Of a stretch of 24,395 nt of DNA, positions 6,275 to 20,312 are shown in pieces. Source of the DNA: an uncultured archaeon (GTDB taxonomy: Archaea > Asgardarchaeota > Lokiarchaeia > Sigyniarchaeales > SOKP01); the NCBI GenBank assembly GCA_964447495.1, contig CAYUTF010000050.1, positions 1 to 24,395 on the forward strand. Direction: 5' to 3'. Numbering within the stretch: position 1 is the first letter of the stretch; the number at the start of each line of letters is the position of its first letter. A model generated the notes under the pieces. It had not been told where the DNA came from. It saw only the letters and a list, made by a program, of their open reading frames with translations, and ran no database searches. A program made the position numbers and the translations under genes.

Positions 6275-8322
6275 TTAATCGATTTTTATATCCATTTTCT
6301 TTCTTTCAGCGAGTAAATCATCCACTACCGATGGATCGGCTAAAGTGGTGACATTCCCGATTTCCGTTCCTGAAGCAATCGCTTTCAAGATTCTTCGCAT
6401 TATTTTTCCACTTCGAGTTTTGGGAAGTGAATCAGCAAATTGAACGACATCTGGCTGAAAAACAGGGCCAATTTCTTTCCGAACATGCATTTTAATTTCA
6501 TTTTCCAACTCTTTGGATTTCTCTACCCCAGCCATCGTTGTTACAAATGCCCATATTGCTTGACCCTTAATCTTGTGAGGGAATGGCGCTACTGCAGCTT
6601 CTGCAACTTTTGGATGGGACACAATTGCACTTTCGACTTCCATTGTACCGATTCGATGTCCAGAAACTTTTATAACATCATCTAAACGTCCTAAGATCCA
6701 GTAGTAGCCATCATCATCGCGTCGAGCACCATCTCCGGTGTATTCATCCCATAATCGAATTGATTTGAAATGGTGTAATAACCCGGATAACGCTCTAGAT
6801 ATGTTGACTTAAATCGCTCTGTATCTCTCCAAACATCTCGAAGCATTCCTGGCCAAGGTTGAGCCATACAAAAATAACCTCCTTCGTCAGCTTCGGTGAC
6901 TTCCTCTCCTTCAAGGTCAAAAATGATTGGCTTGATACCTAAGAAAGGTAAACAACATGAACCTGGCTTGGTTGGAGTTGCCGATGCGATGGGAGTCATA
7001 ATAAAGCCTCCTGTTTCCGTTTGCCAATATGTATCAACAATTGGACACTTGCTCTTCCCTATTACTCGATGGTACCACGTCCATGCTTCGGGATTTATTG
7101 GTTCACCAACAGTTCCAAGCACTTTAAGCGAACTAATATCATGCTTATTCACAGGTGCTTCTCCATATCGCATAAGTGCTCTAATTGCTGTTGGGGCTGT
7201 GTAGAAATGCGTGACTTTATGACGTTCAACAATGTCCCAAAACCTGTATCCGTCGATTGAGAAAGGAAATTCTCGATCGTCTACGTCAGGGTAAGTTGGA
7301 ACGCTTTCAAACATCAAGGATGTTGCTCCATTAGCTAAAGGTCCATATACAATGTAGGAATGTCCTGTGATCCAGCCAATATCTGCAGTACAATACCAGA
7401 CATCATCTTCCTGATAATTAAACACGACACGATGAGTATAAGAAGTATATAAGATATATCCTGCAGTGGTATGATTAACACCCTTAGGCTTACCTGTTGT
7501 TCCACTAGTGTATAGGATAAAAAGCGTGTCTTCAGAGTCCATATGTTCCGGTTCGCATTGTTCACTCACTCCGTCAATGAAATCATGATACCAGATATCT
7601 TTTTTAGTGTGCGGGACTTCATTTCCAGTTCGCTTAACCACGATCACATGTTCGATGGTTGGCACATCATCAATCATTTCAGCAACGTCAGCCATTTTAG
7701 GGTAAAATTTTCCTGCTCGCACCGTCTCATCGCTGGTAAAGAGCAATCGAGAGTCAGAGTCTTCAATCCTGTCTTTTACTGCTTCTTTTGAGAATCCGCC
7801 AAACACGATTGAATGAATTACGCCAATTCGAGCACACGCAAGCATAATTATGGCGAGTTCGGGAATCATAGGCAGCCAAATAGTCACTCTGTCTCCTTTT
7901 TTCAAGCCAAGTTTTCTCATTCCATTCGCTACTTTCGAGACTTCTTTTAACAGTTCGCTGTAAGTAAATTTTTTCGCATGGCCTGGTTCATCAGCTTCCC
8001 AGATAATCGCAATCTTATCACCTTTTCCAGCTTTTACATGGCGATCGAGACAATTATATGCAACGTTTAATTTCCCTCCAACAAACCACTTTCCAGGAAA
8101 TAAATCGGTCGATTCCCATACTTTATCATAAGGTTTAAACCAATCGAGCGATTGAGCTTGTTCACCCCAGAAACCTTCCATGTCGTCAATTGATTTTTTG
8201 TAGAGTGTGTGATATTCTTTAAAAGTCATCCCTGATTTCACAAATTCGGTGTTAAATTTTACTGGGTCGAATTTACGATTTTCAGTGAGGATGCTTTCCA
8301 TTTTATTATCTTCTTTCGGCAT
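6275..8322 (-). CDS. acs: Acetyl-CoA synthetase (AMP-forming), interrupted by two putative BHB introns; exons 8322..7281, 7247..6775, 6742..6275; 660 aa after splicing
   Basis: Motifs [67 protein letters not shown] and [11 protein letters not shown]. ORFs 6691..8322 and 6275..6643 join into one frame after removing 6743..6774. 2048 - 65 = 1983 nt = 660 aa plus stop. Confidence 0.95.
6743..6774 (-). other. Putative 32-nt BHB (tRNA-endonuclease-type) mRNA intron, frame-disrupting
   Basis: Intron ACCAUUUCAAAUCAAUUCGAUUAUGGGAUGAA. Outer helix UCCGG-GU / AC-A-CCGGA, central helix UAUU/GAUG (2 Watson-Crick + 2 G-U), bulges ACA and AAU, inner stems CCAU/AUGG and AAUC/GAUU. Cutting after bulge nt 2 gives PGYYYTGDG. 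Confidence 0.85.
7248..7280 (-). other. Putative 33-nt BHB mRNA intron, in frame
   Basis: Intron ACGAUCGAGAAUUUCCUUUCUCAAUCGACGGAU. Outer helix CCUG/CAGG, central helix ACGU/ACGG (3 Watson-Crick + A.G), bulges AGA and AUA, inner stem CGAUCGAGAA/UUCUCAAUCG (9 of 10 paired). Cutting after bulge nt 2 gives YPDVDRFW. Confidence 0.8.
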
Positions 8323-9577: not shown

Positions 9578-9846
9578 ATTATAATCGTCTAATCAATCTT
9601 TAAATGATTTCTCTCTTCTTGTAATTAGAATATTAAAGTGAATTTATAAATATTTGTTAAACAAATTTCATAAACGAACACAATAATTTTAAGCCTTAAT
9701 TTCTGAAACAGTAATAATAATAATTCCAAAAAGATTATATGGAAGATAGAGCCTATTATAGAAATATTAGAATATATGTTAATTAATAATAAATTTGAAA
9801 TTCTCGAGGAGTAATTGAGAGGGTAGAGCGGTTGAATAATAATTAT

Positions 9847-11736
9847 ATGGACGATGAGTGGAGAAGTGAATGGAAGCAGAAGGAAATTACGGTAGAGGAG
9901 GCAATTGGTAAGATCATTCCAGGAAATCAAGTATTTATTGGATCTGCTTGTTCAGAACCGCAAGCTCTAACATCAGAATTAATAAAAGCTTCAAATAACC
10001 TCATAGATACCGAGATAATTCATTTTTTTACAATTGGTCCTGAAAAATATTTTAAAGATAAAGCAGAAGATTTATTTCGGCATAATGCGTTTTTTATTGG
10101 GAAAACTCTTCGAGAAGAAATTAATAAAGGGCAAGCGGATTATACTCCTATCTTAGCGAGTGAAATTCCTTCATTATTTCTTTCAGGGAGGAAGCATTGC
10201 GATGTTGCACTTATTCAAGTAAGTCTTCCTGATCGGTACGGTTTTTGTTCTTTTGGAATAAATGTTGATTTTGCGAAGCCTATAGCTAAAGCAGCATATA
10301 TCACCATCGCAGAGATAAATCCTCAAATGCCGAGAACCTTAGGGAATAGTTTTATTCATATGAAAGAGATCGATTATTTTGTCTATAATGACACAGCACT
10401 CTTGGAATTTCATTTTAAAGAAAAAGACGAGATAACTGAACGAATTGGAAAAAATGTAGCAAATTTAATCGAAAATAAATCAACCATTCATATAGGCAAT
10501 GGATATTTACCTAACTCTTGTTTAAAATATCTAACGGATAAAAAAGATCTTGGGATGCACAGCCATTATGTAACAGACAATATCATTCCATTGATTGAGG
10601 ACGGCGTTCTAACCTGTAGGAAGAAAAATTTTCATCCAGAGAAGATAATTACGAGTTTTACATTAGGAACGAAGAAATTATATGATTTTATCAATAATAA
10701 TCCTTTCATTGAGTTTTATCCCTCTGATTATATATGTAATCCGAAATATATTGGTATGAATAAAAAAATGGTATCTATAAACCAAGCAATACAAATAGAT
10801 CTTACAGGTCAGGTAAATACGTCAACGAAGGGGTATGATTTTTATTCTGGTATTGGAGATACGGTTGATTTCATGAGAGGAACTGCATTTTCTAAAGGAG
10901 GAAAACCAATAATAGTACTGCCATCAACTAGAAAAAATGAGACCATATCAAATATAGTTCCCCATCTAGATGAGGGAGCGGGTGTGATTTTATCGCGAGC
11001 AGACGTGCATTATGTCGTAACAGAATGGGGTGTGGCATATTTGCATGGAAAGACCATCCGAGAAAGGGTTCTTGAGTTAATTTGTATCTCGCATCCGAAG
11101 TTTCGTCAAGAATTGATGGATGAGGCAAAAAAATTGAATTATATCTTCCACGATCAACTATTACCATGCGATGAAGATGGTAGGATATGCTTATATCCTT
11201 CAAAATATGAGACTCTTTACCGAGCACGAGGAGACGAGCTAATCAAAATTAGACCAGTTAAAACTACTGATGAACCCCTCCTAAAGGATTTATATTATTC
11301 CTTGAATGAACGTGACAGATATTTACGATTTTTTGAAATAAAGAAAGAATTTACTCATTCCAAAACGCAAAGCGAGGTTAATATCGATTATAAAAACATA
11401 TTTTCAATTGGCGCATACATTGGAGAGATTGGTAGGGAAGAGATGATTGGGAGCGCTACTTATTATCTTAATCCAGAAACTAATATGGCAGAATATAGCT
11501 TTTTAGTAAGAGAAGATTACAGAGGGAAGCGTATTGGTTCATTTTTGTATCATCACTTAATCATAATTGCAAAAGAAATGGGAATCAAGGGATTTTATGG
11601 TAATATTCATCTGCAAAATAAAAGTACCGTTCAAATTATTAGAAAAGGGGGGTATACAAAAATTACGCCCCCAGAAGCGGGAGAAAAAGAATTATTCTAT
11701 GAAGTATTTTTTGATAAGGAAAATTCAATTGATTAA
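9847..11736 (+). CDS. Acetyl-CoA hydrolase/CoA-transferase-like domain fused to a C-terminal Pat-type GNAT acetyltransferase
   Basis: DVALIQVSLPDRYGFCSFG, IAEINPQMPRTLG, IQIDLTGQV and DVHYVVTEWGVAYLHGKTIRER motifs. GNAT: IRPVKTTDE...RYLRFF...AEYSFLVREDYRGKRIG. ATG at 9847 preferred over TTG at 9832. Confidence 0.9.
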   Translation: MDDEWRSEWKQKEITVEEAIGKIIPGNQVFIGSACSEPQALTSELIKASNNLIDTEIIHFFTIGPEKYFKDKAEDLFRHNAFFIGKTLREEINKGQADYTPILASEIPSLFLSGRKHCDVALIQVSLPDRYGFCSFGINVDFAKPIAKAAYITIAEINPQMPRTLGNSFIHMKEIDYFVYNDTALLEFHFKEKDEITERIGKNVANLIENKSTIHIGNGYLPNSCLKYLTDKKDLGMHSHYVTDNIIPLIEDGVLTCRKKNFHPEKIITSFTLGTKKLYDFINNNPFIEFYPSDYICNPKYIGMNKKMVSINQAIQIDLTGQVNTSTKGYDFYSGIGDTVDFMRGTAFSKGGKPIIVLPSTRKNETISNIVPHLDEGAGVILSRADVHYVVTEWGVAYLHGKTIRERVLELICISHPKFRQELMDEAKKLNYIFHDQLLPCDEDGRICLYPSKYETLYRARGDELIKIRPVKTTDEPLLKDLYYSLNERDRYLRFFEIKKEFTHSKTQSEVNIDYKNIFSIGAYIGEIGREEMIGSATYYLNPETNMAEYSFLVREDYRGKRIGSFLYHHLIIIAKEMGIKGFYGNIHLQNKSTVQIIRKGGYTKITPPEAGEKELFYEVFFDKENSID

Positions 11737-11779
11737 GAAACCAAAATTTTTTTGACTCTGGATTAATTATCTATGTTGT

Positions 11780-12577
11780 TTGGTTATGAGATATAAATAT
11801 ACTGACTATCATGTTCATACTAATTGGAGCATTGATATCGTAGAAGATGGCCCTTCGTTTGAAGATTATATTCGGATTGCAGATATGAATCGAATTAATA
11901 TTTGCTTTTTAGAACATTATGAATTACGGTATATGGATAAGGAATTTTCTAATCCGTTCTCAAATGAAAATATCAACACATATTTAGAAGAATTAGATAC
12001 ACTTAAGGAAACATATGATTTCATTCTGGCAGGACTTGAAGTGGATTATTATTCAGAAAAAGAAACTGAATTGAGAGAATTCATGGATGATTATGGGAAT
12101 GAATTAGATTTTATCGCGGGTACGATCCATGAATGGATTCCTCTGTATCCCGTGACCACAAGAGAGAGACTAATGGAGTTATTAGAGAAGAAACCGATGA
12201 AAGATGTAATTAAGGAATACTTTTTAGAGTCTAAAAAAATGGTGGAATCAAAAATTTTTAAGAACATTTGTCATATTGACACCATTTTTCGATACATAAA
12301 TGATAATGATATAAAACCCAATAAAGATTGCGATATCTCTAATAAAAATGTATTAGAATTAGGACGGTTATGTATTAAAAATAAAACCAAGATAGAATAT
12401 AATCTCTCTGGATTACGATTTCCCGTAAAGCGACCATTTCCCTCAAAAGAAGTGGTTCATATTTTAAAGAAGGAAGGAGCAGAATTCTTTATTGGTTCTG
12501 ATTCTCATTCTCTTGAATATTTTGAGGAACAGATTTCTAAAATAAAAGATACATATCATTTTATCGACTCAATATAA
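11780..12577 (+). CDS. PHP-domain phosphoesterase (histidinol-phosphatase HisJ-like)
   Basis: Metal-binding motifs DYHVHT, LEH, GLEVDY, CHID and IGSDSH. The true start may be the ATG at 11786. Confidence 0.85.
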   Translation: MVMRYKYTDYHVHTNWSIDIVEDGPSFEDYIRIADMNRINICFLEHYELRYMDKEFSNPFSNENINTYLEELDTLKETYDFILAGLEVDYYSEKETELREFMDDYGNELDFIAGTIHEWIPLYPVTTRERLMELLEKKPMKDVIKEYFLESKKMVESKIFKNICHIDTIFRYINDNDIKPNKDCDISNKNVLELGRLCIKNKTKIEYNLSGLRFPVKRPFPSKEVVHILKKEGAEFFIGSDSHSLEYFEEQISKIKDTYHFIDSI

Positions 12578-12598
12578 GATGAAGGAAAGTGGAAATAT

Positions 12599-13303
12599 AT
12601 GTCAGAGTCAATATTACTCAAAAAAATTGATACATGGGACAAGGAAATAATTATAAAATGGAATGGATTTGGAGGGAAATCTCTCACTTTTCTATTAAGA
12701 ATCATCTCTTTTCTTGGTAGAGAGACAATATGGCTTATTTTAATCGTATTTTATCTATTAATATGGTATGATCCCATCATATTTTCTTATATAGGCTCTA
12801 CATTCTTAGCGGGAATATTATTAATTGTACCTATTAAGAAGATAATCCATCGAGCTCGCCCTTTTGAAAGTTTAAATCAAATAGAAGTTCTGGAACGGCG
12901 TCCAAGTTCTAGAAGCTTTCCCTCATGGCATGTGTATAATATTGTTTCACAGGGATTAATATTTATCTATATATTCAATAATTTAGTTATTATAATACTT
13001 GCTATAGTGTGTACTTTCATTGTAGGAGTCTCGAGAATTCAATTAGGTGTGCATTACCCTAGTGATGTTATTGCGGGGGGTATTTTTGGTATTCTTGGAT
13101 TTTTTTTATCTATACTCCTTATTGCTCCTCTATCGTATACTATTGTAAAATTTTTTGAAAGTTTTATTGAAATACCTATTCAATATCAGAGATTGAATAG
13201 TTTGTTGTTCGAAAATATGTGGTATAACTTACTATGCGCGGGTTTAGTGCTATTAATATTTATCTTAGCTAACTATAAATGGATCAGGGATTATTTTCAT
13301 TAA
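12599..13303 (+). CDS. PAP2-family membrane phosphatase
   Basis: KKIIHRARP, SFPSWH (variant of PSGH) and SRIQLGVHYPSDV motifs; several TM helices. Confidence 0.88.
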   Translation: MSESILLKKIDTWDKEIIIKWNGFGGKSLTFLLRIISFLGRETIWLILIVFYLLIWYDPIIFSYIGSTFLAGILLIVPIKKIIHRARPFESLNQIEVLERRPSSRSFPSWHVYNIVSQGLIFIYIFNNLVIIILAIVCTFIVGVSRIQLGVHYPSDVIAGGIFGILGFFLSILLIAPLSYTIVKFFESFIEIPIQYQRLNSLLFENMWYNLLCAGLVLLIFILANYKWIRDYFH

Positions 13304-13321
13304 TTTAAGTGACTTCAGAAT

Positions 13322-14572
13322 TCAAAGATTGAATTTTCGTTTCTTATCAAATAACTGCTTTAACTCGTTTAAAACTTGAGACCTTGAATCTGCAGCACTT
13401 GATTGACTTCCAGCTTGATTTGGGTTATGAATGCTTATAGGAATACCACTTTGCGCTATTTCGAATGCTCCACTTTCAATAGCTCTCAATCGACTATCTA
13501 AATCATTTAATTGTTTTGAGATACTTTCTGATAAACGAATAACTGCATTCATTGTTTCTTCAAGTGTTTTACCAAGACCTTCTACCTTTTTCAAAGTGGG
13601 ATTAGTAAGAGAATGTGCTGATCTCATAACATCTTTAATATATTTAGAAAATTCGGGTTCATTTGAGATTAAGGAATAGATTGAAGTAAGATATGCTTCA
13701 AAATCGTACCCATACTGCGTTAATAGTTGATTTAGATTATCTTTTAATAATTCAACACTTAATACAATCTCAGGATTATAGCGTAAGTCAGGGTCGTGTT
13801 TATGGATATATACCATAATGAAGGGATTCTCTTCGAGAGTTTTTAAAATCTTCAGTATTTCCTCAAAATACTCAAATGATTCAGCAAAGCGTTCTGAATC
13901 TTGAATATCAATTACATAAATAAGCAAGTCTATTTCGAGAAAATACTGTTCGGGATGACTTAAGTATTTATTACGATATTCTTTTTGACCCCCCATATCC
14001 CATATAAATAAGTCTAATTCAGACCCTTCCATTTGAATATTTCTTCTATCAACTCCCTTAGTAGGAGTTAAAGATACTAGATCACTAATTCCCAATTTAC
14101 CACCAAATTTATTTAAGATTGCTGTTTTGCCGGCATTATCTAAACCAATAATAATAATTTTTTGTCTTTCTTTTTTGAAAACATCTTTATCCTCATTGAT
14201 ATTCATAATAATAGAGCTTATGGTGATTACTTTCTGAAGATTTTTTTCAAGAGAAGGATTTTTTGTCTTTAATTCTTCTAATTTATTGAGTAACTCTTCC
14301 TGAATTTCAGCAGACTTAATAGGGTCCTTAGTCGATTCTGATTTGTTAATATTTTCGAAAGGATCTTCCTTATCAAGCTTTGAAGCATCCTCAATGGTAG
14401 AGATATCTAAGACTTCTCTTAATACCTTTGCTTCGCTTTTATCTAAAAATTTATAGGAATAAATTGGTAGTTTCTTAACATCTTCGAGTGTTTTTAGTTT
14501 ACTCACTTTTGCAACCTTCTCATCCAAGAATTTTGCAAAAATCTTAATTACATTTGAAATATCTGTCGACAT
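13322..14572 (-). CDS. Arf/Rag-like small GTPase with N-terminal helical extension and C-terminal coiled coil
   Basis: G1 GLDNAGKT, G2 TPTKG, G3 WDMGGQ, G4 HKHD, G5 TSIY. Confidence 0.9.
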   Translation of the reverse strand: MSTDISNVIKIFAKFLDEKVAKVSKLKTLEDVKKLPIYSYKFLDKSEAKVLREVLDISTIEDASKLDKEDPFENINKSESTKDPIKSAEIQEELLNKLEELKTKNPSLEKNLQKVITISSIIMNINEDKDVFKKERQKIIIIGLDNAGKTAILNKFGGKLGISDLVSLTPTKGVDRRNIQMEGSELDLFIWDMGGQKEYRNKYLSHPEQYFLEIDLLIYVIDIQDSERFAESFEYFEEILKILKTLEENPFIMVYIHKHDPDLRYNPEIVLSVELLKDNLNQLLTQYGYDFEAYLTSIYSLISNEPEFSKYIKDVMRSAHSLTNPTLKKVEGLGKTLEETMNAVIRLSESISKQLNDLDSRLRAIESGAFEIAQSGIPISIHNPNQAGSQSSAADSRSQVLNELKQLFDKKRKFNL

Positions 14573-14781
14573 TATGATCTCAGAAAACTGATAATTAATT
14601 ATTGGTTTAATAAAAATTTTTTTATAATTTTTTTAGCTTTTAAGATAATAGTTAAATAATTTAAGATATAAATTTTCTCTAGATGTTCCAGATTAGATGA
14701 AAATTTAAATATGTATTTTATTTTAACTATTATACTTGAAGTATATAATTCCAATATAAGAATTGAGATTTATAATATTTT

Positions 14782-15699
14782 ATGCCAAAATCACATTTTG
14801 AAGAAAATGGATTTTTTGAGGAAAACAAGGAGGACTCTTGTTGTGATTCCCCGAAGATTTCAGAGGAAGATGGGTTTTATGTATGCCTAAATTGTGGGTC
14901 GGTATATAGTAGAATTCTTGATGATTCCCCACGTAGAGCTTTCACTCAAGAGGAAATCCAAAAACGCAAGAGTAATGAAAGAGTATATAGTCCCATTGGT
15001 CCCAGAACAATAATTCGAGGAAGTCGTGATGCTCGTGGCACATTACTCAGCCCAAAATATAAATCAAAATTTAACAGATTGGCAAAAATTCATCGATCAC
15101 TCACTACAAGTTATGAAAGGAATCTTTGGATTGCACTACCGAACTTACAAAGATTACAGAAAAGACTTGGTATTCCCGATACTGTTGCTGAGGATGCACT
15201 CCGGATTTATACCCAAACTGTTAAGAAAAAGTTAACTATGGGAAGAAGTATCGATACTTTACTTTCTGCATCAATCTTTTGTGCATTAAGAGTGCATGGT
15301 ATCCCTCGTACTGTTGAAGAAATTACCAAAGTTGCACAAATACCTAAAAAGAAGGTCATTAAAAGCTATCGTCTTATCTTAATGGAAGTCTTACCTAATT
15401 TAAAATTGAAAGTCCAACATTTTACTCCGGATAGGTATGTAGATAAATTTAATGATGAACTCAAACTATCCATGCAATGCAGGAATGTGGCCGTTAAACT
15501 CATAGAAAGTGCAAAAGAGCACGGATTCAATTCTGCAGGCAAGGATCCAAAAGGAATTGCGGCAGCCGCAATCTATATCGGTTCAAAAATATGCAATGAA
15601 AATAAGACTCAAAAAGAAATTAGTAAACTCGCCCGTGTGACCGAAGTTACCTTACGTATGCGCGTTAAAGATCTCATGAAATTTGCAGATACAACGTAA
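14782..15699 (+). CDS. tfb: Transcription initiation factor IIB (TFB) paralogue
   Basis: Zn ribbon (CC...VCLNCG), RRAF, ERNL, GRSIDTLLSASIF, IPRTVEEI, GKDPKGIAAAAIY and TQKEIS...VTEVTLRMR motifs. Confidence 0.93.
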   Translation: MPKSHFEENGFFEENKEDSCCDSPKISEEDGFYVCLNCGSVYSRILDDSPRRAFTQEEIQKRKSNERVYSPIGPRTIIRGSRDARGTLLSPKYKSKFNRLAKIHRSLTTSYERNLWIALPNLQRLQKRLGIPDTVAEDALRIYTQTVKKKLTMGRSIDTLLSASIFCALRVHGIPRTVEEITKVAQIPKKKVIKSYRLILMEVLPNLKLKVQHFTPDRYVDKFNDELKLSMQCRNVAVKLIESAKEHGFNSAGKDPKGIAAAAIYIGSKICNENKTQKEISKLARVTEVTLRMRVKDLMKFADTT

Positions 15700-15702
15700 T
15701 GT

Positions 15703-18700
15703 TTATTCTATAATAGTAATTAGTTCTCTTTCTTCTTCAAATAGAGGTAAAACGTCTAATAAATCTTGGATTTGTTGTAGATATTTATCCATTTTATTTA
15801 TCTTTGCTTCTAAGATGATTCTAATGCACCGAATATAAAAGGTTTCTTGTATCAATCTTTTATTTAATCCTAATGAGTCTAAAAGCGAACTTATATTTAA
15901 TTGGATTGTATATAGCGATTGATTTCCTTTTAAAAAGCACAATCCATGTAATAACATCATTAGTGAAGCCGTCTGTAAATCTTTTCTATTTGCCATACTT
16001 TGGGCTAATTTGAAATATTCATCTCCTGCTTCTTTAAAAGATTTCATAGAAAGAGAGTCAATGACGTTTTGATAATATCTCTTTCTCATTGGATTCCTTC
16101 TAGTTAGAAAATCTTGCTTCTCTCTGAGTACATCACCCCGCATTTGTTTTAATATAGCAAGATCCTGATTCAATTTAACCTGAAGCTTACTAATTTTGCC
16201 AAGATCTTCTCTAGTCATTCTTTCTTGTTCTTCATCAACTTTTTCTTTTTTTGGAATCAACTTTTTTATAATTTCGATTTCGGGCTCAAATAAGACTAGT
16301 CTTTCAATAAGAAGATTTAATCCGTAAACAAACAAGTCAGTCATTTCATTTTCTAAAAGGAAGAAAAGTTCTTCGATCAGCTTAATTTCAGGCAGTTTTT
16401 CTATATTGGATTTAAACCGTTCTAACTTAGTAAGTCTTTCATAAAATTGACTTTTACCTATAGCTAAGTTTTTAAAATTTATTAAAATAGCTGTTCCAAC
16501 GATCAAGCTTATAGCTGCTTCATGTTCAAACTTCTCAATAAGTTTAGGAATAGTTTCATAATATCCTAGGTAGGCATTTTCTAATTTATTGTTAGTTAAA
16601 TCTTCTAATGCCATCCTCCAATATTGGTTTTTCATTAATTTTCGTTTAGCAATGTCTTTCTTTTCCTTAATGATTCTAAAGGCATATTGATCTAGATCAT
16701 CTTTTATTTTTGTAATTTCCAAGCTACGTTCTGTTACTTTTTCAACTGATTTCTCTTTTTCATAGCTCTTTCCTAAATAATCGTATAATAATTTGAGTTC
16801 TTCTTCGAATAATGGGAGATTTACCATTAAACTAACCGTCTCTTTTATTCGGATATCATCTTCAAATGGAATAATATTCACTAAATAATCAGTCAGTGAA
16901 AAAGAAAAGATTTCAGAAATGAGGCTGAGAAGACCAGAAAATCTTGATTTAAAATTACCTAAATAATGTGTAATTTCATTTGTTCTTCTTTCTTTGAGAA
17001 GGATTAGACTTATAATCGCTAATGAAAGACTAGCTAAACTATATTGTGTAATATTAATAAAACGGTCAATACTTTTTTCATATTCCTGAAGAGCTGCAGT
17101 AAGATCGTTAATCCCTAAGAAGTTCAGTCCTTCTTGATAATAGGCTCGTTTATATCCTTTTCTTTGATTAAAAAGGCTAATTTTATCATTATACGCATCT
17201 TTTGCTTTTTTCTTTATAATAGAAAATAAGGCTCTTAACTGATCTTCTTTGTAGGTTTCGTCGACTTTCTTGAGTTCAATCTCTCTTTTTTGATCATCAA
17301 TTTTATTCAAAATCTTGTGCAATTCTTCTTTAAGCATTTTACTATCAATCTTATCCAAAGTAGCGCGTGCTCCAGAGAGATTATCGAGTTCAATATAGAT
17401 TTCAAATATTTCTTTATGAAGATCATCGAAATTACGTTTTATGTTATCCAAATATGCAGAATTTATATCAGAAATCTTTCGAATTAAATTTAATGCGTTT
17501 TCAATTCCTTTATTATTTCTTTCCAAATTAACGATTTTCTGAGCTTTAGTTTTTAAAAAATCAATATAAATTTCCCCAATTTGCTTGGATTGTTCATAAA
17601 GTTGTTGTTCACGATAAATACTTAAAAAATTATCGAAGACTTTTATATTCTCGTCAAAATTTCCTTCAATTTTTATTTCTTTTACTTTTCCTACTATTAA
17701 ATTTAATTTATTTACTAAATACTGTCTTTTTGCTTTCTCAGATAATTCAGGATATATCAGAAAAAATTCATTAAAAACCTTTCCTACTAATAAAATATCA
17801 AGCCCTTTTGATAAAATTTGGTATCTATCCTCTTCCTTACCTAAATTTTTTAAATAATTCGCGTGAGCCTTGATATGATTCGCTGCTTTAAGATAATCTT
17901 GATTTTGTATTAAATTGTTTGCTTCATTAATAGCCTTTTCATTAAGACTTTCGACAATCTTTTGTTCTTCTAGCATAAACTCATTTACGATAGCGAGACC
18001 TTTTTGAATGTTGATTTGAATTTTTTTCTTATACTCTTCTTTATAATCATCTTCAACTTTAGAACTTAATTTAGTAAGCTTTTTTTTAAGAGATAAAGAA
18101 TTTAATTTATTGATTAAAATCGTGGCCATTCCAAAATTCAGAAGATCAAGAAATTGTTCGGCTAATTTTGCTAGTAATTTATCTAAATTTGATTTTTTTA
18201 CATCATATGCTTCCCAAAGATTCTCTATTTCATCAAACGTTTGTTTAGCAGAATAAAGTTCATTGTCATTTATTTGGAGTTCTAAAATTTTAATTAGGAC
18301 CGTCTCTAAGGAGTTTGTGAATTTTTCTAGATGTTCGGTTAAATTTTCCCTTTGATAAACTGAGATCGTTCTATATAATTGCTCTCTCGCTTCAAAAAAT
18401 TTCTTTTCATTGGATAAAAATTTTACCGCATTACCAATTTTTAGTGCTATTTCATCTAATATTGTAAGAACCCCTTCATGAGGCAAGCTATCAAGAATTT
18501 GAAAGGCAAATTCAACTCTACATGCGGATATCCAAGAATTAATAGCTAATCTAAATGCCTCATTCATGAGGTGTTGATCTTTCAATTCTATTGCAGACCA
18601 TTGAGCCACAGATAAATACTTCTTTGCTGCAAGTTCATATTTTCTTTTATTAAATAATTTATTGCCATCTGAAAGCATAGCTTCTGCGTATAATCTCTTA

Positions 18701-19455
18701 TAATTAGCCGATTTTTTCTTATCCACATTTTTTAATATCTTAGATGCTTCAAGATATAAATTAATTTTGGAATATAGGAAAGCTGCCTTCTCACAAATAA
18801 TGAAATATTCATTTTTATTAAATATCTCAGCAATCAAAGCCGATTTCTTAATTGCTTGGGCGGCATAGTAATAATATTCTGGTTTTTGTTCTTTATTTGC
18901 TGTTTTGAAATAAATATTGGCAAGTTGGATAAATATTGGAAATCTCATCCATGCATTTTCTATATTTAAAGGAGAGTCTCCTGTTATCATCGAAAAACAT
19001 AAACATTGGAGTGCTTGAGTAAATTCTATAGGAGATAGATTTGCAAACCCTTCAAAATCAGGATATAGTATCCAGAGGTTTTCTAATAATTCATTTATGG
19101 GGAGAGGAAGAATAGCATAACCATTATTATATACCACAACGAGAGGAATATTCCGTTTAACGGATTTAATTATCGGAACAATCATTTCAAAAAACTCTAT
19201 TTCCTCTTTAATTAAAGGATTAAGGAAATATACAATTCCATCAACCGAAGGAAGAAGCACATCATAATCAGCATTAATAACATCGATAATAGTATCTACT
19301 TCTAAATCGCAAACATCTTCAAATACATTGACTTCCTTATACCATTCTATATATGTTTTCTTATCATCTCCCTCTTCGATAAACGCTTGTGAGATATAAC
19401 TAGATAAGAATTCAGAATCCAAGCCTAGAATTAAAACTTTAAAGATATAACGCAT
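15703..19455 (-). CDS. 1250-aa protein: degenerate GTPase-like N-terminal domain plus long TPR/SNAP-like alpha-solenoid with three C-terminal repeats
   Basis: Starts YIFKVLILG, with VDGIVYFLN and IPLVVVYN strands but no GKT P-loop. Helical repeats such as KYELAAKKYLSVA and DYLKAANH. LPLFEEE/LVLFEPE/LPLFEEE occurs three times. Confidence 0.8.
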   Translation of the reverse strand: MRYIFKVLILGLDSEFLSSYISQAFIEEGDDKKTYIEWYKEVNVFEDVCDLEVDTIIDVINADYDVLLPSVDGIVYFLNPLIKEEIEFFEMIVPIIKSVKRNIPLVVVYNNGYAILPLPINELLENLWILYPDFEGFANLSPIEFTQALQCLCFSMITGDSPLNIENAWMRFPIFIQLANIYFKTANKEQKPEYYYYAAQAIKKSALIAEIFNKNEYFIICEKAAFLYSKINLYLEASKILKNVDKKKSANYKRLYAEAMLSDGNKLFNKRKYELAAKKYLSVAQWSAIELKDQHLMNEAFRLAINSWISACRVEFAFQILDSLPHEGVLTILDEIALKIGNAVKFLSNEKKFFEAREQLYRTISVYQRENLTEHLEKFTNSLETVLIKILELQINDNELYSAKQTFDEIENLWEAYDVKKSNLDKLLAKLAEQFLDLLNFGMATILINKLNSLSLKKKLTKLSSKVEDDYKEEYKKKIQINIQKGLAIVNEFMLEEQKIVESLNEKAINEANNLIQNQDYLKAANHIKAHANYLKNLGKEEDRYQILSKGLDILLVGKVFNEFFLIYPELSEKAKRQYLVNKLNLIVGKVKEIKIEGNFDENIKVFDNFLSIYREQQLYEQSKQIGEIYIDFLKTKAQKIVNLERNNKGIENALNLIRKISDINSAYLDNIKRNFDDLHKEIFEIYIELDNLSGARATLDKIDSKMLKEELHKILNKIDDQKREIELKKVDETYKEDQLRALFSIIKKKAKDAYNDKISLFNQRKGYKRAYYQEGLNFLGINDLTAALQEYEKSIDRFINITQYSLASLSLAIISLILLKERRTNEITHYLGNFKSRFSGLLSLISEIFSFSLTDYLVNIIPFEDDIRIKETVSLMVNLPLFEEELKLLYDYLGKSYEKEKSVEKVTERSLEITKIKDDLDQYAFRIIKEKKDIAKRKLMKNQYWRMALEDLTNNKLENAYLGYYETIPKLIEKFEHEAAISLIVGTAILINFKNLAIGKSQFYERLTKLERFKSNIEKLPEIKLIEELFFLLENEMTDLFVYGLNLLIERLVLFEPEIEIIKKLIPKKEKVDEEQERMTREDLGKISKLQVKLNQDLAILKQMRGDVLREKQDFLTRRNPMRKRYYQNVIDSLSMKSFKEAGDEYFKLAQSMANRKDLQTASLMMLLHGLCFLKGNQSLYTIQLNISSLLDSLGLNKRLIQETFYIRCIRIILEAKINKMDKYLQQIQDLLDVLPLFEEERELITIIE

Positions 19456-19646
19456 GATTGAATGATTTAATTAATTTTTTTATCTTTATTATATTTTAGT
19501 ATAAAAATATATGTTGGGAAGGTACTTACTTTTCAAAATCTCAAATCTTTAAAAATATTATTATTATTAAAAACTTTTTAACCTTCCTTTATCTATTATA
19601 AGTATTAATTTAATCAGAAAATGTTTAATTTAGGATATTTTTAGTC

Positions 19647-20312
19647 GTGATCACTGTGGACTACATAGAGCGTAATTATCAGCTGGTCCAAGAAAGAATG
19701 ATTGAGCAAATGGAAAACTCATTAAAGTTGGGAAGGAAACTAATAGATACTGAATTAGACACAGGTATTCTTAATTTTGTGGTGCGCCCTATTGTAAAAA
19801 CTTTTTATGACTACTGGACGGAACATGAAGCTAAAGTGGGGACGTTAAATCAAATAAAAATTGCTTTAGAGAGCGGAAAAGAATTACTGATTAATGGAAA
19901 TTCAGAAGAAAGCTTTCTTAAAATAATCGAGAAAAATTTTCCTAATTTTCTTAAATCTGATCAGACAACTTATCAATGCAGTAAAAATCATAAAAACTAT
20001 CCAAAATTAGAACAGATCACAAAAGAAACATTTATGAACTATGTGAGAAAAGTTGTGGCTTTTTTACAAGTCAAGGATGATGTGAAAGATTATGGGGATT
20101 TATGCCGAAGTGCGTTTAAAACCAAAGAATATGCTCAGCAAAATTTGATGAAACAGTTGGAATATACCGATAAAAGTATTAGTCTCATTGAAAAAGATTC
20201 TTCTATTCTATCACTACCTTTTGGAAAGAGAATTATTATTAAAGCGTTGAGAAAAGGATTCGAAGAAACTAAAAAAGAGTTTATCAAAGCGATTAATGAG
20301 ACTTATGTTTAA
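19647..20312 (+). CDS. Hypothetical alpha-helical protein, tandem paralogue A
   Basis: 221-aa ORF colinear with the next ORF. The start may be the GTG at 19656. Confidence 0.85.
   Translation: MITVDYIERNYQLVQERMIEQMENSLKLGRKLIDTELDTGILNFVVRPIVKTFYDYWTEHEAKVGTLNQIKIALESGKELLINGNSEESFLKIIEKNFPNFLKSDQTTYQCSKNHKNYPKLEQITKETFMNYVRKVVAFLQVKDDVKDYGDLCRSAFKTKEYAQQNLMKQLEYTDKSISLIEKDSSILSLPFGKRIIIKALRKGFEETKKEFIKAINETYV

Follow-up and report, generated by a model that had tools for sequence, protein, structure and literature searches.

The stretch of DNA analysed here, referred to as the window, is a 24,395-nucleotide (nt) contig from an uncultured archaeon (CAYUTF010000050.1 of assembly GCA_964447495.1; contig C50 of genome G000, 3.81 Mb in 223 contigs, 98.4% complete, 3.75% contamination). 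On its minus strand, at 8322..6275, it carries acs, the gene for AMP-forming acetyl-CoA synthetase (Acs), divided over two reading frames. The upstream frame extends from an ATG at 8322 to a stop at 6691 and forms a 543-amino-acid (aa) open reading frame (ORF) with the Pfam domains ACAS_N and AMP-binding; the second, readable from 6742 as YTGDGARR..., covers 155 aa to the stop at 6275 and contains AMP-binding_C. Between them lies a 32-nt insert at 6774..6743 that forms, together with its exon flanks, a full bulge-helix-bulge (BHB) motif. An earlier reading of this DNA from sequence alone (henceforth the sequence-only reading) had interpreted the insert as an endonuclease-spliced BHB intron in the acs mRNA. 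The comparative tests described below support that claim: the 32 nt are very probably excised at the RNA level, as an archaeal BHB intron of the acs pre-mRNA. What the sequence-only reading overlooked is a second insert at 7280..7248, a family of eight insert sites, and the fact that the BHB is not the lowest-energy fold. Its suggestion of a probable Asgard host agrees with the closest relatives of the gene, since the nearest acs loci with labels come from metagenome-assembled genomes (MAGs) of Promethearchaeota / Promethearchaeia, and Promethearchaeota is a phylum within the kingdom Promethearchaeati, the Asgard group. The organism occurs in salt-marsh samples. The parts of the gene are listed here with their evidence in brackets.

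7281..8322, minus strand: acs exon 1, with the ATG at 8322, ACAS_N and most of the AMP-binding domain (ORF, Pfam, orthologue alignment)
7248..7280, minus strand: second insert, BHB-like, 33 nt, at the site reference nt 1048 (comparison with intact orthologues, shuffles)
6775..7247, minus strand: acs exon 2 (ORF and orthologue alignments)
6743..6774, minus strand: focal 32-nt putative BHB intron, frame-breaking, composed of A, the hairpin CCAU...AUGG, GAUG and AA (pairing, homology, shuffles)
6734..6787, minus strand: whole focal BHB motif including its exon strands (pairing over five distinct sequences; holders versus non-holders)
6275..6742, minus strand: acs exon 3, with the YTGDG motif, AMP-binding_C, the PKTRSGK lysine motif and the stop at 6275..6277 (frame, Pfam, alignment)

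All BHB elements described by the sequence-only reading are present in the minus strand of the focal site, where they read as follows (a slash marks a predicted cut).

6787..6781, minus strand: 5' exon outer strand, UCCGGGU
6741..6734, minus strand: 3' exon outer strand, ACACCGGA, with A6739 bulged
6780..6777 and 6748..6745, minus strand: central helix, UAUU and its partner GAUG
6776..6774, minus strand: bulge 1, AC/A
6744..6742, minus strand: bulge 2, AA/U
6773..6770 and 6752..6749, minus strand: inner stem, CCAU and AUGG

The outer helix comprises seven pairs and one bulged A. The splicing endonuclease EndA cuts after the second nucleotide of each bulge, and applying this rule, as had been done before, places the predicted cuts exactly at the junction defined by homology. 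This junction is unique in the protein alignment because no boundary nucleotide is repeated, and in 7/7 sequences with an insert at the site it corresponds to cuts after the second nucleotide of both 3-nt bulges around a 4-bp helix. When the 32 nt are shuffled and the homology register is held constant, 4/4 central pairs and an inner run of at least 4 arise in 80 of 100,000 cases. Excision yields PGYYYTGDG with the predicted three residues between PG and TGD, matching the PG-x-Y-Y-TGDG of most sequences of the same gene that lack the insert. As also predicted, it returns the C-terminal domain to frame and restores AMP-binding_C; the unspliced frame ends at 6691 and lacks this domain, whose PKTRSGK lysine motif is needed for adenylation in this enzyme family. 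Once both inserts are removed, the product has 660 aa, of which 574/660 are identical to an intact orthologue with no gaps; removing the focal insert alone leaves 11 gap columns. Removal of 35 nt between direct TACACC repeats would likewise restore the frame, but was rejected since its product, PGYYTGDG, is one residue short. A self-splicing group I or group II intron was dismissed on the size of the insert (only 32 nt, compared with hundreds of nt for a ribozyme core) and on an Rfam search at gathering threshold that gave no match in the window.

The same site is filled in other organisms. An orthologue alignment, which the sequence-only reading had proposed as a check, showed the insert absent from intact orthologues and the focal site (reference nt 1521) occupied in seven sequences, five of them distinct: the window, genome G018 and five metagenome contigs. 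The latter were retrieved with an exon-flank pattern that demands an insert at the focal site; having been picked for the insert, they carry no information on its frequency. Among the 161 genomes of the class, this pattern matched two, G000 and G018, and in metagenomes it gave six matches, five of them in acs. The sixth, L137, is unlike acs and was taken as chance; an earlier, over-specific metagenome pattern for the site had returned no match.

Across these sequences the insert varies while the motif is retained. Insert lengths are 32, 32, 32, 32 and 29 nt, all of the form 3n+2, and the canonical BHB is found in 7/7 sequences, with 4/4 central pairs, 3-nt bulges and an inner run of 3-6. Standard pairs fill 98.7% of the 75 pair cells in the five distinct sequences (central helix 100%, outer 100%, inner 95%), a share that drops to 32-51% if the 3' partners are shifted by 1-3 columns. 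Double changes occur in one exon pair (G-C to A-U) and one inner pair (A-U to U-A), and the second nucleotide of bulge 2 is A, U, C or G among the holders, as expected if it is unpaired. The exons are matched to the insert as well: in the outer helix, full complementarity of the seven exon-exon pairs is found in 7/7 holders but in 0/56 sequences without the focal insert. This pairing depends on third codon positions (Pro, Gly, Thr and Gly) that are synonymous, and the freest outer pair (-10/+6) is complementary in 21/56 non-holders, about the chance level. Nucleotide identity among the sequences with the focal insert is only 77-82%; the insert has been kept across lineages with about 22% exon nucleotide difference and a ratio of nonsynonymous to synonymous substitution rates (dN/dS) of 0.03-0.05.

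The second insert of the window resembles the first. Its central helix, ACGU (7286..7283) with ACGG (7253..7250), has 3/4 pairs; the bulges are AG/A and AU/A, the outer helix is CCUG (7290..7287) with CAGG (7246..7243), and the interior forms a 10-bp hairpin with one mismatch. In frame and stop-free, it is hidden within the 543-aa ORF. Loci L109, L135 and L136 have it at the same site with compensatory hairpin changes, intact orthologues lack it, and 224 of 100,000 shuffles do as well.

Both inserts belong to a larger family. We aligned fetched loci against one intact gene, which gave 69 distinct sequences, some of them partial, after 11 exact duplicates had been dropped. Inserts 29-60 nt long are present in fifteen of the 69; they occupy eight fixed positions, which follow reference nt 946, 1043, 1048, 1090, 1200, 1276, 1437 and 1521 and all lie within 575 nt (about 7380..6743 of the window) of the 1989-nt acs. 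Each holder has one to seven inserts, the window two (sites 1521 and 1048). Among 41 related genomes, 30 match the N-terminal part strongly and seven rows have an uninterrupted frame of 662 codons; the C-terminal part is found in 27/42 genomes of the genus. At site 1276, represented by 12 distinct sequences, 88.9% of cells are paired compared with 31-46% after sliding, six pairs are changed on both sides (25 cells), and the covariation of 0.442 (0.197 in shuffles) is reached in 0/500 shuffles. Site 1090, with six sequences and a unique register, has 93.8% of cells paired versus 21-53%. A complete 4/4 central helix is present in 8/8 rows at site 946, 7/7 at site 1090, 5/6 at site 1437 and 7/7 at site 1521, and a 3/4 or 4/4 helix at sites 1048 and 1276; across sites, nearly every row has A as the first nucleotide of the 3' bulge. 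By eye, similar hairpin loops (AUUUCG, AAUUCG, AUUUAG) recur at sites 946, 1276, 1437 and 1521 in several genomes, which could reflect a shared origin or a loop preference.

Among the 49 distinct insert instances, twelve, at sites 946 and 1521, change the reading frame, nine contain in-frame stops and 28 are in frame and stop-free. After removal of the inserts, no in-frame stop and no other frameshift is left in 15/15 holder sequences. Between holders, dN/dS is 0.026-0.068 at a synonymous divergence (dS) of 1.4-3.3 in 7/9 pairs; in the other two, dS is too saturated. Such strong selection on a gene with frame-breaking inserts argues strongly that the message must be repaired before it is read. 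Six of the eight sites have lengths of 3n (30, 33 and 42/60 nt), and 28/37 of these inserts are free of stops in the coding frame, compared with 13/37 and 20/37 in the other frames and about 38% in shuffles, although the 3n instances are related to each other and the count is a hint only. A possible reason for this bias is selection for inserts that tolerate being translated in unspliced RNA.

The inserts are real DNA. In run X2, a second sample, a DNA contig of 918 nt (6347..7264) spans the focal insert with no difference and no gap, and another (7247..7706) covers the second insert without difference; the focal insert is not an assembly artefact of one sample, a possibility that the sequence-only reading had raised. 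This sample is possibly from the same sampling campaign, so that the evidence is modest yet sufficient against a one-off assembly error; the occupation of the same site in other organisms is much stronger evidence. Among public proteins, none matches exon 3 at more than 91% identity and no product of this species is on record; the 12 inspected among the 120 matches listed for exon 3 are fragments or orthologues from other species. Public gene calls in relatives (P0002, P0004, P0005, P0008, P0009, P0011 and others) are fragments of about 176-180 aa that start at a Met directly after site 1437 (MLRDVW...), with P0008 starting inside the site-1276 insert. Gene callers are thus splitting these acs genes.

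The genome encodes the enzymes that excision would require. Two EndA paralogues of 201 and 205 aa, 34% identical, each have the N-terminal and catalytic EndA domains above the Pfam cut-off (104 and 69 bits), and RtcB is encoded in an intact frame (561 bits). Only the first EndA paralogue keeps, by eye, a His at what is presumably the catalytic position. This would fit an (alpha-beta)2 enzyme, a form reported to have a broad substrate range (PMC6379350), and a preprint reports two EndA paralogues in most Asgard genomes (bioRxiv 10.64898/2026.10.13.758758). In the proposed mechanism, the acs pre-mRNA would fold such that an exon-exon outer helix, the 4-bp UAUU/GAUG helix between 3-nt bulges and the intron hairpin form. 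EndA, probably as a two-subunit (alpha-beta)2 enzyme, would by analogy cut after the second nucleotide of each bulge, and RtcB would join the exons, the intron being released, probably as a circle. The joined exons would restore ...PGYY/YTGDG... and the frame of the C-terminal domain, and with the second insert also removed a 660-aa Acs would result; the unspliced RNA would yield a 543-aa protein without the C-terminal domain. Such a family of mini-introns at eight acs sites would have been inherited, lost or gained patchily among related Promethearchaeota.

Several observations weigh against this interpretation. The holders of the focal insert are kin and five of them were found with a pattern that requires an insert, so their counts are not independent. 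Covariation at this site is modest, with two double-change pairs in five related sequences, and 13/500 shuffles do as well. The BHB also does not give the stable fold expected of a BHB intron. The minimum free energy (MFE) structure of 6725..6800 (-19.2 kcal/mol, z -2.17, 5/200 shuffles as good) is a different pairing, in which UAUU pairs with AAUA, made of the last two intron bases and two exon bases, with a 4-nt bulge left on one side; for two relatives the MFE structure contains a 3-by-4 internal loop in place of this bulge. For five holders the energy of the BHB conformer exceeds the MFE by 5.3-8.1 kcal/mol, and its central helix, consisting of two G.U and two A-U pairs, is weak. Competition from such a fold could make splicing less efficient. 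Energy models of the nearest-neighbour type put a penalty on 3-nt bulges, and the bulged motif is expected to be selected through binding by EndA. Sequence variation fits the BHB and not the MFE alternative, since GAUG is invariant while the second base of the MFE partner is A, U, C or G among holders. Elsewhere in the family, sites 1043 and 1200 fit the canonical geometry poorly (1-3/4 central pairs in an automatic parse), partly because gap placement is ambiguous there, and some of the 28/37 stop-free 3n inserts could in principle be translated and not spliced.

Transcript data give no direct confirmation. Four runs were compared with the window, three of them metatranscriptomes, libraries of a kind that can contain DNA. 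Contigs from the RNA libraries match acs exactly at 6471..6621, 7064..7230 and 8189..8322, and with one difference at 6309..6515; in the three metatranscriptome runs, no contig covers 6743..6774 or 7248..7280 and no joint was found. As they miss both inserts, these contigs say nothing for or against splicing. A 33-nt piece of run X10 at 6696..6728, with three differences, continues into unlike sequence and was assigned to another organism.

Other explanations have to be considered against this background. The inserts might be removed from RNA by a route other than EndA and RtcB, for example by another structure-specific RNase and a ligase. The energetically disfavoured BHB and the poor fit of sites 1043 and 1200 would be compatible with such a route. 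However, the cuts deduced from homology obey the EndA rule at the sites with a unique register, and EndA with RtcB, both encoded here, is the sole archaeal system known for such excisions (PMC6379350; PMC7714728). We consider a different enzyme pair very unlikely.

Slightly less likely still is translational bypass, in which the insert is left in the mRNA and skipped by a hopping ribosome. In all five distinct focal-site sequences the insert is flanked immediately on both sides by a Tyr codon, a hairpin sits within the gap, and the stop avoidance of the 3n inserts suggests that ribosomes sometimes meet them. A Tyr-to-Tyr hop would, however, produce PG-YY-TGDG, one residue short of most insert-free sequences. 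Moreover, sites 1090, 1437 and 1521, as well as site 1276 in L019 and L020, have no boundary repeat and no matched take-off and landing codon, and neither the exact BHB geometry nor the tuning of the exon outer helix has a role in hopping.

That acs is a decaying pseudogene, disabled by an insertion and giving no Acs, is highly improbable. Its literal frame is broken by the stop at 6691, the public gene calls of relatives are fragments, and 15/42 genomes of the same genus lack a match to the acs C-terminal part at E<=1e-40, so the gene is maybe dispensable, although many of these genomes are incomplete. Decay is at odds with the clean frames of 15/15 holders after insert removal, with a dN/dS of 0.03-0.07 between holders at saturated synonymous sites, and with the retention of the same insert in sequences that are only 77-82% identical in nucleotides. 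Nor was a second close acs copy found in the genome, where the next best match is 31% identical. We regard as equally improbable a hairpin-forming, MITE-like mobile DNA element that landed in acs with the BHB shape as a by-product: the inserts are short hairpins whose presence varies from one close relative to the next, and they crowd into 575 nt of a single gene, but both window inserts are single-copy in the 3.8-Mb genome, unique-register sites have no target-site duplication, hairpin sequences diverge with pairing kept, exon bases covary with insert presence, and the idea concerns origin only, as the insert would still have to be taken out of the RNA to account for the selection on the exons.

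Beyond acs, we found little sign of similar inserts. Seven ORFs next to the gene (9832..19455) were aligned over 9701..20000 with the syntenic genomes G018 and G023, which have four and six acs inserts, and none of the three genomes has a BHB-like insert in them. Indels of at least 18 nt in this alignment lie at gene boundaries, except for in-frame indels of 21-24 nt in two ORFs (13322..14572 and 15703..19455); these appear ordinary, without hairpin or BHB features. A tblastx comparison of the metagenome loci with G000, the output of which was only skimmed, revealed no broken neighbouring gene. A loose scan of G000 for a BHB within an ORF gave 902 plus-strand and 721 minus-strand matches, compared with 838-909 and 724-795 in slid controls; a stricter scan gave 130 versus 120-146, with no excess in a ranking by hairpin energy either. 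A strict BHB in a 100-codon ORF context occurs 154 times with a 3n and five times with a non-3n length, compared with 139-163 and 3-6 in slid controls. Of the five non-3n matches, four have an open joined frame, none resembles the acs inserts, and all were judged to be gene junctions. The lack of an excess of such candidates elsewhere in the genome counts against our reading as well, but the scans are insensitive, with strict criteria that miss the focal intron itself (inner run 4), and the result means that no excess was detectable, which does not amount to absence. As the evidence stands, acs is a hotspot. The GC content of acs (0.36-0.42) is above that of its surroundings (about 0.29). ARAGORN detected no tRNA in the window; its intron mode reported introns in 15/56 tRNAs of the genome, several of them implausibly long (128-807 nt), and this result was not used.

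Within the acs family, inserts come and go. Holders are scattered over the protein tree, beside insert-free sisters that are 85-88% identical in nucleotides, so that inserts must have been precisely lost, or gained at the same sites, more than once. A quick FastTree run gave this tree, which is midpoint-rooted and has no support values, and no order of events was drawn from it. In the pairs L135/L040, L136/L045 and L027/L049, a sequence with 4-7 inserts stands next to an insert-free sister, all inserts being absent together. Such all-at-once absence would fit replacement by a copy of the spliced cDNA or by an intron-less allele. With moderate confidence, we view acs as a mosaic gene with eight endonuclease-spliced mini-intron positions, up to seven of them in one gene, gained and precisely lost among congeners, whose stop-avoiding 3n bias would mean that ribosomes often meet unspliced RNA.

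Endonuclease-spliced introns are rare in archaeal mRNA, as the sequence-only reading had noted with cbf5 as its example, and the literature agrees. According to PMC7714728, the crenarchaeal cbf5 mRNA intron is the only one reported beyond tRNA and rRNA, and this 2020 study adds one case in a 5' untranslated region (5'UTR); PMC2738675 describes cbf5 introns of 16-44 bp, one per gene, and introns in other protein genes as predictions only. As far as these descriptions go, the cbf5 case (Watanabe 2002; Yokobori 2009) resembles acs in that a short BHB intron within a gene that encodes a protein is taken for a frameshift or ignored in annotation, is lost in particular lineages, and occurs in hosts with a two-subunit EndA. 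It differs in having one intron per gene, compared with eight acs sites and up to seven introns per gene, and in residing in an RNA-modification enzyme of thermophilic Crenarchaeota, whereas acs encodes a metabolic enzyme of an Asgard lineage (Promethearchaeota); cbf5 splicing has been shown experimentally, while for acs we infer it. The intron of HVO_1309 in Haloferax volcanii is also an EndA substrate in an mRNA, but is located in the 5'UTR and leaves the reading frame unaffected (PMC7714728).

Archaeal tRNA and rRNA introns share with the acs inserts two 3-nt bulges around a 4-bp helix that is half built by the exon, and Asgard tRNA introns are described as repeatedly gained, patchy and sited where the exon supplies half of the motif (bioRxiv 10.64898/2026.10.13.758758). 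The intron-rich classes of that preprint, Jordiarchaeia and Atabeyarchaeia, are not the lineage of the window, and the word mRNA is absent from its main text. Unlike tRNA and rRNA introns, those proposed for acs would have an mRNA as substrate, and their excision must keep a reading frame. In eukaryotes, the HAC1/XBP1 intron is 26 nt long, and its loss, which does not involve the spliceosome, makes the message read into a different C-terminus in another frame, as would the loss of the tiny focal intron in acs. HAC1/XBP1 mRNA is spliced unconventionally by IRE1 and RtcB (PMC13149111). In both cases, for acs as proposed, a protein endonuclease acts at structured sites before RtcB-type ligation, but IRE1 is from another endonuclease family and recognises two stem-loops instead of a BHB; it serves a regulated eukaryotic stress switch. 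Bypass elements, such as that of phage T4 gene 60 and the yeast mitochondrial byps, which are hairpin inserts of 27-55 nt in coding genes, are likewise short hairpins scattered in coding genes and read as frameshifts. They stay in the mRNA and need matching take-off and landing codons, which most acs sites lack, having BHB geometry instead. Our literature search, with subscription-only papers and supplements outside its scope, turned up no description of such BHB introns in acs or in protein genes of Asgard archaea. We therefore rate the mechanism as known but the lineage and the class of gene as new for it, and the number of sites per gene as unprecedented.

In the searchable papers, the confirmed endonuclease-spliced archaeal mRNA introns comprise the cbf5 coding intron and one 5'UTR case. 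If our interpretation holds, acs would have more introns than any other protein-coding gene described from Archaea, and this in the lineage closest to eukaryotes; the tRNA-splicing machinery could then mend, in the RNA, split protein genes of the closest prokaryotic relatives of eukaryotes. Annotation pipelines break such genes up or drop them, so that gene content and metabolism inferred for Asgard MAGs may be under-called. With its intron number ranging from 0 to 7, this gene would offer a natural series for studying how introns arrive, persist only where exons supply half of the motif, and are precisely lost. It also raises the question of how a cell with coupled transcription and translation copes with unspliced mRNA, for which the stop-free 3n bias is relevant: coupling would select the form of introns in a cell without a nucleus, and frame-breaking introns such as the focal one would make the output of Acs depend on splicing efficiency.

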